Shown here: in pieces, positions 55,244 through 59,129 of the stretch
Position numbering within the stretch: the first letter of the stretch is position 1
Layout: each line of letters starts with the position of its first letter
Translations under genes and position numbers: made by a program
Notes under the pieces: generated by a model
Told to the model about the DNA's origin: nothing
Database searches by the model: none
Seen by the model: the letters and a program-made list of their open reading frames with translations, nothing else
Source of the DNA: an uncultured Gammaproteobacteria bacterium
Lineage (GTDB): Bacteria > Patescibacteriota > Microgenomatia > Daviesbacterales > UBA10151
DNA length: 64,000 nt
NCBI GenBank assembly: GCA_964392925.1
Contig: CAYMRP010000002.1
Coordinates: forward strand, 72,759 to 136,758
Reading direction: 5' to 3'

Positions 55244-56164
55244 TTATCGATCAACTCTAGTAATCCAATTTAAGTATTTAGGATTTTTACCATGCACAAT
55301 ATCAGAATATAAACTAATTATTTTCTCAGTCCACTCACCTGTTTTACCATTTCCAATAACCTGATCTTCTACTTGAACTACACCCGCAATTTCCGACCCA
55401 GTTCCACAAACAAATATTTCATCAGCATTTTTTAATTCTTCCAAACTTATTTTCCTTTCTTCAACTTCCAAATCAAATTCTTTCTTGAGAATCTGCATAA
55501 TTGTATCGCGGGTAATCCCAACTAAAATATCAGCAGTCGATGGGGGAGTAAATATTCTCCCATTCTTAACAATAAAAAGATTCTCTGCAGACCCCTCCAC
55601 CACAGACCCTTCGTGATCCAAAAAAAATGCCTCATCAAATCCAAGTCCGGCACTCTCAGTTTTCGCCAGACAGGTATTAGCATAAGCCCCAGTAATTTTA
55701 CCTTTTGGTGGAATCGCTTTATTTGAAACTCTGACCCAAGATGAAATATTTGCTTTAAGGCCGCTCTTTTCGCCGTAATGCCTGCCCAAAGGAATACAAT
55801 ACATTGCAAACCCATCAGCTAATTTATCTAAATTAAAATTACCAATCGCCGGATCTGATTTATATGCCAGTGGTCTGATATAAACATCAGTCTCACTAAA
55901 ATTCTTTTTCAAAAGTTCTTTTGTAATCTCAGTTAATTCTTCAGGAGTTCCCGGCAATTTTATATGCATTATTTTCGTTGACTCAACCATTCTTTTAAAA
56001 TGATCTTCAACTCGAAATGCATAAAGACATCTCTCTTCCTCACTATAATAAGCCCGTATCCCCTCGTAATTACCCGTCCCGTAATGCAAAGCATGAGTAG
56101 TTACCGGCACCACCGCCTCTTCCTCAGAAACAAACTTACCATTAAAGAAAAAAGTCTTACTCAT
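55244..56164 (-). CDS. class IV aminotransferase (branched-chain amino acid / D-amino acid aminotransferase)
   Basis: 306 aa; EGSAENLFIVK PLP-fold IV signature. Confidence 0.75.
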   Translation of the reverse strand: MSKTFFFNGKFVSEEEAVVPVTTHALHYGTGNYEGIRAYYSEEERCLYAFRVEDHFKRMVESTKIMHIKLPGTPEELTEITKELLKKNFSETDVYIRPLAYKSDPAIGNFNLDKLADGFAMYCIPLGRHYGEKSGLKANISSWVRVSNKAIPPKGKITGAYANTCLAKTESAGLGFDEAFFLDHEGSVVEGSAENLFIVKNGRIFTPPSTADILVGITRDTIMQILKKEFDLEVEERKISLEELKNADEIFVCGTGSEIAGVVQVEDQVIGNGKTGEWTEKIISLYSDIVHGKNPKYLNWITRVDR

Positions 56165-56192: not shown

Positions 56193-56250
56193 ACCATTTA
56201 ACAATCAACCATTTAACAATCAACAATTTAGCAATTTAGCAATTTAGCAA
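56193..56250. repeat. tandem repeats (AACAATCAACCATTT)x2 + (CAATTTAG)x3
   Basis: aaccatttaacaatcaaccatttaacaatcaacaatttagcaatttagcaatttagcaacc; overlaps the last codons of rluB. Confidence 0.85.
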
Positions 56251-56779
56251 CCTCCTCCGAATTCAATTTCCTAAACTTACCTAATCCTAATTTCTCATCT
56301 CTTAAACTACCTATCGCTACCCTCTTTAAATCTAATAATTCTAACCCAACTTTTCCACACATTCTCCTCACCTGTCTATTCTTCCCTTCAAAAATAGTTA
56401 ATTCAAATATCTCACTGTTGCTCTCCCGCGAAATTAGTTTAACAACAGCCGGTGATGTCACACTGTCTTTTATCTCGAGTCCTTTTTCAAATTTTTTAAT
56501 AACTGGTTTCGGTAAAAATCCTCTGATTGTTAATTGATAAGTTTTGCCTAATTCATGAGAAGGGTGGGTGAGTCGATTCGAAAACTCTCCATCATTTGTA
56601 AATATTAAAAGCCCGGAGGTATTCTCGTCCAATCTCCCAACAGGAAAAACCTTCTCCGGCACTTTCACTAAATCCATCACAACCGGCCTGCTCAATTCAT
56701 CACTGGTCGTAGTTATATATCCTTTTGGTTTGTTTAATAAGTAGTAAACAAACTCTGTCTCGTCATTTATATTTTTCAT
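56228..56779 (-). CDS. pseudouridine synthase (RsuA/RluB family) with S4 domain
   Basis: 183 aa; GRLDENTSGLLIFTNDG catalytic Asp motif. Confidence 0.8.
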   Translation of the reverse strand: MKNINDETEFVYYLLNKPKGYITTTSDELSRPVVMDLVKVPEKVFPVGRLDENTSGLLIFTNDGEFSNRLTHPSHELGKTYQLTIRGFLPKPVIKKFEKGLEIKDSVTSPAVVKLISRESNSEIFELTIFEGKNRQVRRMCGKVGLELLDLKRVAIGSLRDEKLGLGKFRKLNSEEVAKLLNC

Positions 56780-56797
56780 AATAGAATGGTAAATTTA

Positions 56798-56826
56798 TTG
56801 ACTTTTTACCTTCAAGTTGATATATT
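56798..56826 (+). promoter_or_regulatory. sigma70-like promoter TTGACT-17-TATATT
   Basis: -35 56798-56803, 17-nt spacer, -10 56821-56826; drives the 30-aa ORF. Confidence 0.55.
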
Positions 56827-56863
56827 GTAACTCATAGCTTCCTGAAAAGGAGCTTTTTAAACA

Positions 56864-56956
56864 AATGAACAGAAATAATTCATCACTTCTTAGCCTTCTT
56901 AACCTCAACATTGTTGAGGTCGTACTCGTCGTGGGTACAAAAGGAGGCGCTTTTTA
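56864..56956 (+). CDS. 30-aa hydrophobic peptide (MNRNNSSLLSLLNLNIVEVVLVVGTKGGAF)
   Basis: SD aaaaggag 8 nt upstream of ATG, own promoter and terminator; below ORF-track cutoff. Confidence 0.45.
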
Positions 56957-56987
56957 AGAAATAAAAAATCTTAAAAAGAAGACACAA

Positions 56988-57012
56988 GCCTCCTTAACAG
57001 GAGGTTTTTTTT
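56988..57012 (+). terminator. rho-independent terminator (cctcc-ttaaca-ggagg + T9)
   Basis: seen directly in sequence. Confidence 0.7.
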
Positions 57013-57016
57013 TGGT

Positions 57017-57091
57017 CAAAAATTCCACTGGAAGTTTTGACGGGTCAAGCACTATGACCGCCGGAGGCGGAATACAATATCAATCTTGACC
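57017..57091. repeat. composite element copy 1: palindrome AAAATTCCActGGAAgTTTT + inverted repeat GGGTCAAG...CTTGACCC enclosing CCGCCGGAGGCGG hairpin
   Basis: mirrors arrangement at 58398-58470. Confidence 0.6.
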
Positions 57092-57135
57092 CAGTAAAAT
57101 ATTTGTAAAAAATTAAAAGAAAGGAGGAAATAAAT

Positions 57136-57375
57136 ATGGTTGACATAAAGAACGGATATGATTGGGATTTTAGCCTAAGTGCTTCAACCCAAAAGCCCAG
57201 AATAGATTTAGATAAAGAAGCTCAAAAAATGATGGATGGGATAAGAAACGGATCTCAATCCCAAGTGGATTCCGCTAAAGAAGCCCTAAAAAGGTTTGAA
57301 CTAATCAGAGCTACTAATCCAATTGATAGATTTCAAGCTGGAAGAGTAGACAGGAAACCTCAGGCTAAAAAATAG
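57136..57375 (+). CDS. hypothetical small protein (79 aa)
   Basis: strong SD aaaggagg; N-terminal KNGYDWDFS motif shared with next ORF (DDSYDWQPS). Confidence 0.55.
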   Translation: MVDIKNGYDWDFSLSASTQKPRIDLDKEAQKMMDGIRNGSQSQVDSAKEALKRFELIRATNPIDRFQAGRVDRKPQAKK

Positions 57376-57467
57376 GAGCACAAGAGCTCGCTTGTCTGAG
57401 CAAAGAAGATAAAAAGCTGGAGGGGATATCAAAGGAAATATCCCCTCCAAAAGAAAGGAAAATAAAA

Positions 57468-57872
57468 ATGAAACATGAAATAGGAATGTGTGATTTTGAT
57501 GACTCGTACGATTGGCAGCCATCAAATAAAAAGAATGATAAACCAGATTTACCAAGGGGTGTTAAAGCTACTCCAAGTATTTCTATTGAAACTCGGGAAC
57601 CAGTTCCTGCAGCAACTAAAAGAAATGCCATCAGCTTAGCTGAATGGGTAATTAAAAATAGGGACGCAAACTCTCTGTCTTTCGGCGAAAAAACCGCCTG
57701 GAGCCAGGGAATAGGTTTCATCAAAGAAAGAGATACGCTTAACAGCGCAACAAGAGTTGATACTCAAACTTCTGATACTGAAACTATAGAAATAAAGGCA
57801 AAACCATTAGAGCAATTTATAACTCCCACAGCTTCCCCAGCTGCTAGCCGAACTCTTGCCCTCGCCCTCTAA
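57468..57872 (+). CDS. hypothetical small protein (134 aa)
   Basis: SD gaaaggaaaa; shares N-terminal YDW motif with preceding ORF. Confidence 0.55.
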   Translation: MKHEIGMCDFDDSYDWQPSNKKNDKPDLPRGVKATPSISIETREPVPAATKRNAISLAEWVIKNRDANSLSFGEKTAWSQGIGFIKERDTLNSATRVDTQTSDTETIEIKAKPLEQFITPTASPAASRTLALAL

Positions 57873-57883
57873 AAACTGACTAT

Positions 57884-58234
57884 ATGACCCGCAGAAAAAA
57901 TCCAGAATGGAGTGATCCTACAGCAGAAGCAGCAATTTCAAAATTAAGTTTTGCTGGGAAAGAAAAAACATCCAAACCACCTCCAACAAACTACCAGGGA
58001 GTCGAGTTTTTAAGCAGATTTAATACTCCGTCTGAATCAAAAGAAAGAAGGAGATTAATCAAAAATCTTAATAAAGAAATTGACACTCTCTGCAAGGATG
58101 ATCCCATGAGGATTGAGCTATCCAGAAAAAGAGCAAGGCTTGAAGCCCAACAATTCGCCTCCAGAGTAAGTTCAGATGTTTTTAAAGAAAACAGACGCCA
58201 TCGCAAAGCAATCTTGCATTCACTACGCCCTTAG
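57884..58234 (+). CDS. hypothetical basic small protein (116 aa)
   Basis: Lys/Arg-rich, predicted helical; own ORF between island genes. Confidence 0.5.
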   Translation: MTRRKNPEWSDPTAEAAISKLSFAGKEKTSKPPPTNYQGVEFLSRFNTPSESKERRRLIKNLNKEIDTLCKDDPMRIELSRKRARLEAQQFASRVSSDVFKENRRHRKAILHSLRP

Positions 58235-58367
58235 TTTAAAATCTTTATTAATGACAACTTTCAGCACTCAAATTATGTCCTCCATTATCATTGTTAGCCC
58301 AATTATTGGGCGCAATCTCGGGAGGACTTTTTAGAGTAAAACTTTAAAAAGAAAGGCAAAAACCTAA

Positions 58368-58392
58368 CCTCCCGCAAGGGGGGCTTTTTTTT
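58368..58392 (+). terminator. rho-independent terminator (cctccc-gcaa-gggggg + T8)
   Basis: seen directly. Confidence 0.7.
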
Positions 58393-58397
58393 GGCTT

Positions 58398-58470
58398 GAA
58401 TGTCCAATGGACATTTAAGCGGGTCAATTACATTTAAGCCATCGCAGGATTGTAATGATGAAATTGACCC
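58398..58470. repeat. composite element copy 2: palindrome AATGTCCAaTGGACATT + inverted repeat GGGTCAATT...AATTGACCC
   Basis: same order and spacing relative to the preceding terminator as copy 1. Confidence 0.6.
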
Positions 58471-58847
58471 AGAAAGAAATTATGGCAGTATCACCTGAAA
58501 CACCTAGACAAATAAACCTAAAACAAAAAGTTGCTGTAGCCCAAAGCCTCTACCTACCAAAGGATGGGCGAGCAGAATTGATGCGCGCCAGACTTAAACA
58601 TGCTCCAGATGGAATAGAAGACGGTGTTACTGGTTTTGAACTAGATTCATTAGGAGGAGTTCAAAAAATATACACCCAGGACAAAAAACAATGGTATGAG
58701 ATTTTCCTTTTTGGACCAATAAAAAACCGTGACAGAGAATTAATTGCTCAGTACTTTGGTTTTAATGAAAAACAGAATCAACAGGTCCCAGGTATCGATC
58801 AGGTTGGTCCTTTTAGAATAAGAAAAAATTATTTCGTAACAACTTAA
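58455..58847 (+). CDS. hypothetical small protein (130 aa; alternative start 58482)
   Basis: ORF begins inside the inverted repeat; second ATG at 58482 (MAVSPETP) may be the real start. Confidence 0.5.
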   Translation: MMKLTQKEIMAVSPETPRQINLKQKVAVAQSLYLPKDGRAELMRARLKHAPDGIEDGVTGFELDSLGGVQKIYTQDKKQWYEIFLFGPIKNRDRELIAQYFGFNEKQNQQVPGIDQVGPFRIRKNYFVTT

Positions 58848-58865
58848 AAGAAAGGAGGATTAATA

Positions 58866-59129
58866 ATGGATAGAAAAAATGGATTAGATGTCAGACCCAA
58901 CTTGCCGGTAGAAAATCAACCCAATGGAATTCCTGTAGTCCGTGCAGTCATCGATGCAGATGTTAGGTTTGCACTAGCGGCAGGAATTGATTATACAATC
59001 GATCCAATAACTACAGCATTGGCTAAAAATGGAACTTATTTAGCAGCACCACCGACTGATAGTGAAGTAGCAGCTGCTGTATTTTCAGGCTTAAATTACT
59101 CATTGCCCGGACCTAAAAAAACTCGGTAA
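58866..59129 (+). CDS. hypothetical small protein (87 aa)
   Basis: strong SD aaaggaggattaataATG. Confidence 0.55.
   Translation: MDRKNGLDVRPNLPVENQPNGIPVVRAVIDADVRFALAAGIDYTIDPITTALAKNGTYLAAPPTDSEVAAAVFSGLNYSLPGPKKTR

Follow-up and report, generated by a model that had tools for sequence, protein, structure and literature searches.

A candidate family of amino-acid-responsive leader-peptide attenuators in Daviesbacteria-like bacteria

The 64,000-nt window analyzed here (contig CAYMRP010000002.1, positions 72,759 to 136,758) contains a 30-codon open reading frame (ORF) that most likely encodes a leader peptide through which ribosomes attenuate transcription. The ORF lies between a promoter and an intrinsic terminator, and a first-pass annotation of the sequence had presented it as a stand-alone gene for a small hydrophobic peptide. 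We find instead that it is one copy of a repeated cis element, and that in most relatives the next gene follows directly behind the terminator. The family has about 24 copies on 14 contigs of Daviesbacteria-like bacteria of the Candidate Phyla Radiation (CPR), with two to three copies per locus. Across it the RNA scaffold is kept while the composition of the peptide is exchanged, and the leader composition fits the downstream gene wherever that gene is recognizable. The family evidence instead supports two other points of the annotation: its secondary suggestion that the peptide could be a leader, and the case it had named as speaking against its own reading, that the region regulates the downstream genes in cis as an RNA.

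We refer to the unit under study as W1 and to the second copy in the window as W2. L-numbers designate related contigs or loci, and a letter suffix designates the copy. Table 1 gives the coordinates.

Table 1. Features of the W1 unit and its surroundings, numbered from the first base of the window
Feature	Position	Strand	Remarks
ilvE	55244-56164	-	
rluB-like gene	56228-56779	-	divergent from the W1 promoter
Sigma-70-type promoter TTGACT-17-TATATT	56798-56826	+	TTGACT 56798-56803, TATATT 56821-56826; extended -10, with TG ahead of the -10 box
5'-untranslated region (5'-UTR) hairpin AGCUUC-loop-GGAGCU	56836-56854	+	holds a Shine-Dalgarno (SD)-like GGAG (56849-56852); read from sequence
W1 leader ORF, 30 codons, MNRNNSSLLSLLNLNIVEVVLVVGTKGGAF	56865-56957	+	ATG 56865, TAA 56955-56957; predicted A-type (Leu/Val) leader peptide
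Segment R1 GCCUUCUU	56893-56900	+	codons Ser10-Leu11-Leu12; 5' strand of stem P1; RNAfold, RNAduplex
Hairpins H1 CCUCAAC-AUU-GUUGAGG and H2 GUACUC-GUCGU-GGGUAC	56903-56938	+	H1 56903-56919, H2 56922-56938; inside P1; Ile/Val/Leu codons 14-23
Segment R2 AAGGAGGC	56941-56948	+	3' strand of P1; perfect 8-nt complement of R3 (antiterminator)
Hairpin P2 CUUUUUAAG-loop-CUUAAAAAG	56950-56978	+	leader stop UAA in the 5' strand
Intrinsic terminator	56986-57013	+	R3 GCCUCCUU 56988-56995, loop, R4 AGGAGG 56999-57004, U9 57005-57013; CCTCC 56989-56993, TTAACA, GGAGG 57000-57004; scan gives a 9-pair stem, 56986-57007, + T-run
Extra structured RNA	57014-57094	+	12-bp hairpin and GGGUCAAG...CUUGACCC stem; between the W1 terminator and the next gene's SD
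Predicted read-through genes	57136-57375, 57468-57872, 57884-58234	+	79-aa ORF, 134-aa 'YDW' ORF and 116-aa ORF; order conserved in relatives
Second attenuator, W2, B-type, Ile-rich, MTTFSTQIMSSIIIVSPIIGRNLGRTF	58214-58392	+	possible promoter TTGCAT-17-TAAAAT 58214-58242; leader ORF 58251-58334; R1 58277-58283, R2 58321-58327, P2 58327-58351, terminator 58368-58383 + U8

Anatomy of the unit and of its family

The W1 promoter had been read correctly in the first-pass annotation; it scores 10/12 and is the top of 14 sites in a 4.5-kb promoter scan, and a counterpart of the form TTGAC(A/T)-17-TATA(T/A)T is seen in L002, L003, L088, L090, L087, and L105. The terminator, CCTCC-TTAACA-GGAGG-T9, is also there as described. 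Other details need adjusting. The ORF is real, but its coordinates had been given one base low (56864-56956), and the 7-bp hairpin that had been placed in the 5' part of the transcript is H1, which sits within the ORF at codons 13-19. Codons 8-23 of the leader supply 6 Leu, 5 Val, and 1 Ile residues, and no single amino acid is strongly enriched on its own (binomial test vs. the window proteome). The transcript from 56834 to 57013 folds with z = -7.1, and none of 200 shuffles is as stable.

The rluB-like gene next to W1 marks the source of the window as a Daviesbacteria-like CPR bacterium, and the closest relatives by RluB are L001-L003, with identities of 69-75%. In an nhmmer search with the W1 intergenic region, L002 and L003 each have the unit where W1 has it, in the divergent arrangement, and second copies are reported in L003 and in the window itself (around 58250-58392). 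A pattern made of P2 and the terminator matches the window at two places only, W1 and W2, where 0 are expected. The same pattern, when scanned against metagenome contigs, finds 21 loci, which divide into 10 true relatives and 11 unrelated terminators; these false positives are L084, L086, L092, L094-L097, L099 (TARA porin-gene terminators), L082/L091, and L100. In viral contigs the pattern matches the same false positives only. A profile, followed by a covariance model (model R1), raises the family to 20 copies from 11 sources (E <= 6e-4), and L105 and L106 hold further copies. Automatic alignment of the 3' domain with MAFFT and RNAalifold misaligned P2 and recovered the terminator alone, and we used a hand-specified structure with a covariance model instead.

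Every copy has the same fold: a short ORF, the stem P1, the hairpin P2, an A-rich linker, and a terminator. The 5' strand of P1 is a CCUCC-like segment inside the ORF (R1), its 3' strand is a GGAGG-like segment (R2), and one or two small hairpins are enclosed between them. P2 is an A/U hairpin directly 3' of R2 that holds the stop codon of the leader. The terminator pairs R3 (CCUCC) with R4 (GG(A/G)GG), and U7-U9 follow. In the model-fitted alignment of 20 copies, P2 and the terminator are 84.9% paired, a value that none of 500 shuffles reaches and that is higher than that of every slid control; the terminator helix by itself is 93.9% paired.

The reading frame is conserved as well. The leader ORF has 21-35 codons in all copies, it starts with ATG (GTG in one), and the start is placed shortly after the promoter. 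Of 19 distinct copies, 18 keep this frame open all the way from the ATG through R2; for the other two frames the numbers are 3 and 1. In 17 of 18 copies the stop codon is found 6-14 nt past the R2 core, and that of L003a precedes the core by 12 nt.

R2 can pair in two ways. In W1, R1:R2 is an 8-bp helix of -12.4 kcal/mol (RNAfold/RNAduplex), and R2 (AAGGAGGC) is also perfectly complementary to R3 (GCCUCCUU) over 8 nt, at -15.3 kcal/mol. R2:R3 complementarity extends over 6-10 bp in every copy, with energies between -13 and -17.7 kcal/mol that are comparable to those of R1:R2 and R3:R4; the exception is L085c (-9.5 kcal/mol), where the automated R2 anchor is misplaced. Contiguous R2:R3 pairing past the invariant core is specific to each copy, with 34 observed vs. 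25.0 +/- 3.6 with shuffled partners (P = 0.012). At alignment pair 6-77, 9 copies have G-C and 7 have A-U. One pair is specific to the antiterminator, as its R3 base falls in the loop of the terminator; it reads A-U in W1 and U-A in L085b.

If R1 of W1 is masked, as it would be by a stalled ribosome, the antiterminator and the terminator are isoenergetic (-24.0 vs. -24.6 kcal/mol), and in this masked-fold model R2:R3 is the minimum free energy (MFE) structure until R4 is transcribed. For W2, the antiterminator is the MFE structure when the model has the ribosome stall at the Ile codons. In known attenuators, such as that of trp, the antiterminator works kinetically and not as the more stable fold.

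The peptides carried by this scaffold are of several types. The A-type (Leu/Val) leader of W1 is shared by L088a, L103a, L090, L087a, L105a, L002a, and L003a, and the B-type (Ile) leader of W2 by seven relatives. There is a B-like Ile leader in L003b (MRNFSEVVILSIIIVSPITGHDLRRRF) and another Ile leader in L101b (MQRNIINIIEIIITSSSGRIS, 8 Ile of 21 residues, P = 1e-4). The C-type (Leu) leaders, with 10-12 Leu of 33-34 residues, are those of L101a (MSKTIAIDLRRVENLLSLLLLGLLLGAFIRRSF) and of L085b, the latter with 12 Leu of 34. Finally, L085c has a Phe leader (MDQRNFRFFSFESFTFQKEGGLLE, 6 Phe of 24, P = 6e-4). Enrichments in the paralogs have binomial P values between 1e-4 and 1e-3 with respect to the window proteome.

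In three cases a leader agrees with the recognizable biosynthetic gene or genes behind it. The Leu leader L101a lies 10 nt ahead of a gene of the 2-isopropylmalate synthase family (leuA-like), whose protein scores 492 bits, under the equivalog cut-off because its C-terminal domain is missing. The Ile leader L101b is directly upstream of a Rid-family gene (above its cut-off) and of the threonine ammonia-lyase gene ilvA (NF006390, 637 bits vs. 421). And the Ile leader L003b is found 10 nt upstream of ilvB, the biosynthetic acetolactate synthase large subunit (TIGR00118, 632 bits vs. 538).

A leader of another kind is MESNSQNMNNLNRTIICKSLHWMGVYFGTSRRFLG, present in L085a (L085, reverse complement, 3433-3358) and L089a (L089, 5455-5533). 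It has no dominant amino acid, and Cys, His, Trp, and Tyr appear once each. Downstream of it there are two small ORFs and then a PepT-like peptidase (TIGR01883, above cut-off), an arrangement that hints at peptide scavenging under attenuator control.

Within one type, the amino acid changes preserve the pairing. In the six A-type leaders that we compared, synonymous changes do not outnumber non-synonymous ones, and the latter nevertheless preserve the hairpins and leave the peptide with its Leu/Val/Ile character. As an example, H2 GUACUC...GGGUAC in W1 becomes GUACUC...GAGUAC in L087a (Gly to Ser), and in L002a it is a different stem altogether, CGUGA...UCACG (Leu-Val to Ile-Ile, and Gly-Thr-Lys to Ser-Arg-Asn). 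H1 CCUCAAC/GUUGAGG in W1 becomes CCUUAAC/GUUAAGG in L105a (Glu to Lys). These changes argue for a constraint acting at the level of the RNA.

The position of the next gene is informative as well. It starts 0-42 nt past the U-run in L002a, L003a/b, L083, L087a/b, L090, L101a/b, L085b/c, and L105 (11 nt, with an SD, in L002a), a gap that leaves no room for a separate promoter, and thus downstream expression must come from read-through of the terminator. In L101b the ATG of ridA abuts the U7, and the terminator 3' strand GGGAGG is the SD of ridA (L101 1905-1918). We observe the same arrangement in several paralogs (the L085 and L101 leaders, and L003 3791-3781), with GGGAGG and U7 as SD and spacer for an ATG right after the U-run; other than for ridA in L101b, this ATG opens a mini-ORF of 3-11 codons that overlaps the start of the next gene. 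Where the terminator 3' strand doubles as an SD, the terminator hairpin would also sequester the ribosome-binding site, and control would be jointly transcriptional and translational.

Proposed mechanism and competing explanations

From this anatomy we infer that the ORF is translated, that ribosomes stall on it, that stalling leads to read-through, and that Leu/Val is the signal for W1. The strong promoter would fire, and the RNA would fold into P1 with its two small hairpins, then P2, then R3:R4 followed by U9, with RNA polymerase halting at 57013. A ribosome would translate the 30 codons while the RNA is being made. With ample charged Leu and Val (and Ile) tRNA, it would reach the UAA, 7 nt beyond the GGAGG core of R2, and cover R2, and R3:R4 would terminate transcription. 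With scarce charged tRNA, it would stall on the Leu, Ile, or Val codons in or just after R1 (codons 11-17; SLLNLNIV...), such that R1 is held unpaired and R2 is free. The free R2 would then pair with the newly made R3, stacked on P2; no terminator would form, and transcription would continue into the 79-, 134-, and 116-aa genes. Finally, if there is no translation at all, P1 and the terminator would both form, and the result would be superattenuation.

What we find in the sequence has the attributes of an attenuator: a conserved short ORF, clustered codons, an intrinsic terminator, a 2:3 pairing that excludes both 1:2 and 3:4, and a stop codon placed appropriately with respect to segment 2. 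In W1, R1 coincides with codons 10-12 (Ser-Leu-Leu), and LNIVEVVLVV follows. In L101a, L101b, and L003b, the amino acid that would be sensed is one in whose metabolism the downstream genes take part, and the proteins behind W1 are without a family.

A number of observations weigh against this explanation. The genes behind W1 are not amino acid biosynthesis genes and have no recognizable function, and a tblastn search of the 64-kb window with IlvB, LeuA, RidA, IlvA, and PepT gave no matches. The maximum 19-residue Kyte-Doolittle hydropathy of the W1 peptide is 1.85, which also fits a membrane peptide. The initiation signals are poor: the SD had been described as 8 nt from the ATG, but the SD-like GGAG is 12 nt away and paired within the 5'-UTR hairpin. 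That hairpin is shared by L088a, L090, and L087a and absent from L002a, so conservation does not extend to an SD. Some paralogs lack one entirely, and their translation would be leaderless or nearly so. In the window the next gene lies 122 nt beyond the W1 terminator, and this interval includes a weak promoter-like site, TTGACC-16-AAAAAT (9/12). In addition, the R2:R3 covariation is modest (score 0.109 vs. 0.081, reached by 21 of 500 shuffles). The evidence from covariation is limited because the GGAGG/CCUCC core is invariant, and it is not independent of the terminator pairing, in which R3 also takes part.

Of the alternatives, the one that survives best, although we still regard it as unlikely, retains a leader-peptide attenuator but has it respond to another cue (translation stress, a ribosome-targeting compound, or membrane-insertion capacity), so that the unit would be a stress switch for its operon. 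That the genes behind W1 are not branched-chain amino acid genes would suit such a switch, as would the Asn content of the W1 peptide (5 of 30 residues) and the existence of L085a/L089a leaders without a single dominant amino acid. Against it we have the paralogs, which are enriched for one amino acid and matched to leuA, ilvA, and ilvB, and also the A-type leader of L003, which heads a transcription unit running into an Ile-type leader and ilvB. No resistance, Sec, or YidC genes are found downstream. An antibiotic-responsive leader of the erm/cat type was also considered and dropped, as the downstream region is without a resistance gene.

A somewhat lower probability goes to an attenuator independent of translation, in which a metabolite, a protein, or a tRNA selects between terminator and antiterminator and the ORF is incidental. 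The stability of the conserved structure, and an SD that is poor or absent in many copies, are both compatible with this; moreover, the stop codon and the C-terminal Phe are set by the P2 sequence CUUUUUAA. An incidental ORF, however, does not explain a frame that is open so much more often than the other two, with a start that is always ATG (one GTG) and always near the promoter. The interior of P1, the would-be ligand pocket, is not conserved between leader types, and it is the codon content that is type-specific and matched to the pathway. A search of the window and nine related loci at the Rfam gathering scores reports only tRNAs, and neither a riboswitch or T-box nor any of the leader families Leu_leader, Phe_leader, Thr_leader, His_leader, Trp_leader, and PyrG_leader. 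An Rfam search by E-value of region 56700-57250 reports sub-threshold terminator look-alikes, of which the best is Phe_leader (30.7 bits vs. a gathering score of 55), matching the terminator only.

The proposal with which the first-pass annotation had started, a stand-alone membrane peptide with its own promoter and terminator, either a type I toxin (Hok/Fst/TisB) or a membrane regulator, now seems very improbable. W1 by itself does look the part, with its strong promoter and terminator, a hydropathy above the usual threshold of 1.6, a peptide conserved in six to seven relatives, and the 122 nt that separate its terminator from the next gene. But the hydrophobic stretch is interrupted by Asn, Asn, and Glu, and hydrophobicity is not a family property: on the same scaffold, the maximum 19-residue hydropathy is -0.06 for L085c (Phe), 0.41 for L085a, and 0.64 for L101b (Ile). 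A search of the opposite strand between 56208 and 57258 for the antisense promoter that a type I system calls for found no promoter-like site, hence there is no candidate antisense RNA; the hairpin that the minus strand forms at 57004-56989 has no T-run. The terminator abuts the start of the next gene in most relatives, the A-type amino acid changes follow RNA pairing and not conservation of the peptide, and a membrane peptide would not account for the three cases in which composition fits the biosynthetic gene downstream. A precursor of a ribosomally synthesized and post-translationally modified peptide was dropped, there being no modifying enzymes nearby and the peptide not being the conserved part.

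Other units and genes in the window

In W2 the -35 hexamer is weak and the ATG is 8 nt past the -10 box. The start codons of the B-type leaders and of L101b are all 7-8 nt after the -10 box, which suggests that the leader mRNAs are leaderless. The L003 homolog of the W2 leader is the one that lies directly ahead of ilvB.

Behind W2 the extra structured RNA occurs a second time (58393-58470), and a 121-aa gene comes next (58482-58847). This extra element, of 80-115 nt, is present in five copies, the two in the window (57014-57094 and 58393-58470), two in L088 (3593-3680 and 4905-4982), and one in L103 (560-668). Its parts are a 12-bp hairpin, whose apex UCCA-N-UGG is conserved, and a long-range stem, GGGUCAA...UUGACCC; among the five copies 7 of 20 pairs have compensatory double changes. 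The element is confined to the lineage of the window and its closest relatives, L088 and L103, where it is inserted between each attenuator terminator and the SD of the gene that follows. It is not at the same position in the other relatives, and it has no Rfam match.

The genes that W1 precedes form a conserved operon on the plus strand (57136-59129) that encodes small, lineage-restricted proteins, with lengths of 79, 134 ('YDW'), 116, 121-130, and 87 aa. Searches of these proteins against Pfam and NCBIfam found no family. The gene order in L088, L003, L103, and L105 is A-leader, a variable small gene, YDW, a protein of about 110 aa, B-leader, the 121-aa protein, and a protein of 64-87 aa; in L003, ilvB takes the slot behind the B-leader. 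As for the length of the protein behind W2, the mechanical ORF start at 58455 falls within the structured element, and the homologs all begin MA(V/I)..., in agreement with a start at the ATG of 58482; the protein is thus probably 121 aa long, and not 130. Its family is small, with 3 proteins in a word-indexed search and 16 cluster representatives in a profile search of 1.8 billion. The AlphaFold2 model of the 121-aa protein is a confident one, with a predicted local distance difference test score (pLDDT) of 85 and a predicted template modeling (TM) score of 0.77, and a Foldseek search of the model against the PDB gives no match at E <= 0.001, with TM scores below 0.3. One protein, P0004 (222 aa), is a fusion of the 121-aa family with the 64-87-aa family that follows it, which suggests that the two act together. 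Between the 79-aa and 134-aa genes, there is also a perfect 14-bp hairpin, GGAGGGGATAT...ATATCCCCTCC (57417-57450), with no plus-strand T-run, that may be an mRNA-stabilizing or processing element inside the operon.

There is a third, weaker attenuator-like unit on the minus strand (18797-18633), with a promoter TTGACT-17-TATAAC and a leader of 21 codons (MKNIIVVTPHHTVLCKEAVLM, 18757-18692). It has a CCUCU/AGAGG hairpin, a P2-like hairpin that contains the stop, and a terminator GCCGCC-N10-GGGCGG-U7 whose 5' strand is complementary to a preceding GGCGG, a set that replaces GGAGG/CCUCC. The unit has a fold z of -4.55 and scores 25 bits with covariance model R1 (E = 0.03). Downstream of it are an 80-aa ORF (18553-18311) and then a gene resembling that of CTP synthase (18078-16465).

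Regarding the source of the relatives, L001 (CAYNRM010000063.1) and L003 (CAYOSW010000018.1), both GTDB representatives, are titled 'uncultured Gammaproteobacteria'. They have RluB identity, gene order, and the attenuator family in common with the window and with L002, a Daviesbacteria metagenome-assembled genome, and the two bins are probably mislabelled.

Known attenuators and the meaning for CPR bacteria

The classical attenuators of enterobacteria (leu, ilvGMEDA, ilvBN, thr, phe, his, trp) combine a short codon-rich ORF with an intrinsic terminator and RNA segments that pair either as 1:2 and 3:4 or as 2:3. The family described here has the same components, a short codon-rich ORF and four segments (1:2 and 3:4, or 2:3) with a terminator just upstream of the gene, and it too has leaders enriched in different amino acids for different operons. 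There is, on the other hand, no sequence or structure homology to the enterobacterial leaders (Rfam Leu_leader, Phe_leader, etc.). The stop codon is past segment 2, in an extra hairpin (P2) between segments 2 and 3, and one 3' scaffold (GGAGG, P2, CCUCC/GGAGG, U-run) is used for the Leu, Ile, Leu/Val, and Phe versions. Unlike the enterobacterial attenuators, the family has copies that are apparently leaderless, copies in which the terminator 3' strand is the SD of the next gene, and a member, W1, that precedes genes of no known family.

Outside Proteobacteria, Gram-positive analogues have been predicted or tested in part. Upstream of ilvD in Staphylococcus aureus, a peptide of 26 aa contains Ile and Leu codons, and behind it come a terminator hairpin and, as a predicted alternative, an antiterminator that sequesters the poly-U tail. 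Ribosomes are proposed to stall on this leader at low charged tRNA; it controls the ilv-leu operon and has genetic support from suppressor mutations (PMC5794164). In the CPR family the predicted antiterminator takes the 5' strand of the terminator instead. Leader peptides with terminators have been predicted by comparative genomics for ilvB in Actinobacteria (PMC1262725), and there is an ilvB upstream ORF in Corynebacterium (PMC10272879, PMC11857589). L003b resembles these in lying directly upstream of ilvB outside Proteobacteria, but it belongs to another phylum and has another sequence and hairpin layout, and the CPR family is multiplied within loci and is also found at non-biosynthetic genes. 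Like the toxins Hok, Fst, and TisB, the W1 ORF is about 30 codons long, encodes a hydrophobic stretch, and has a promoter of its own and a terminator close by. It differs from them in lacking a candidate antisense RNA; in addition, the family does not conserve the sequence of the peptide, and the unit is situated at the starts of operons.

In the literature library that we could search, we found no description of leader-peptide attenuators in Patescibacteria/CPR. Most likely, this is a previously undescribed family of amino-acid-responsive attenuators in bacteria with tiny genomes, and its mechanism is of the classical kind. What had the appearance of an orphan toxin-like peptide gene would then be a regulatory element with a concrete, testable mechanism, and gene callers for CPR genomes, as well as screens for small peptides and toxins, should mask such leaders. 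The element would also give a first functional handle on an operon of hypothetical proteins, namely its induction under shortage of Leu, Val, or Ile.

We also entertain, tentatively and as the less likely case, a broader possibility: that Daviesbacteria-like CPR bacteria with reduced genomes rely on a self-multiplying attenuator family for their main amino acid sensors, and that lineages which lost branched-chain synthesis kept the Leu/Val- and Ile-type switches and use them to induce the operon of small proteins on starvation. If so, YDW, the 116-aa protein, and the pair of 121-aa and 64-87-aa proteins, for which no solved structure matches, would be the response of an episymbiont to branched-chain amino acid starvation, or its means of acquisition. 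The covarying extra RNA that follows the terminators would then add another layer of regulation.

Classical attenuation in the Candidate Phyla Radiation would imply that transcription and translation are coupled in these bacteria, and that they sense tRNA charging. Moreover, the family has the unusual property of a single scaffold in which the regulatory codons have been exchanged among Leu, Ile, Leu/Val, and Phe, and it would provide a natural series for studying how the specificity of attenuators evolves.

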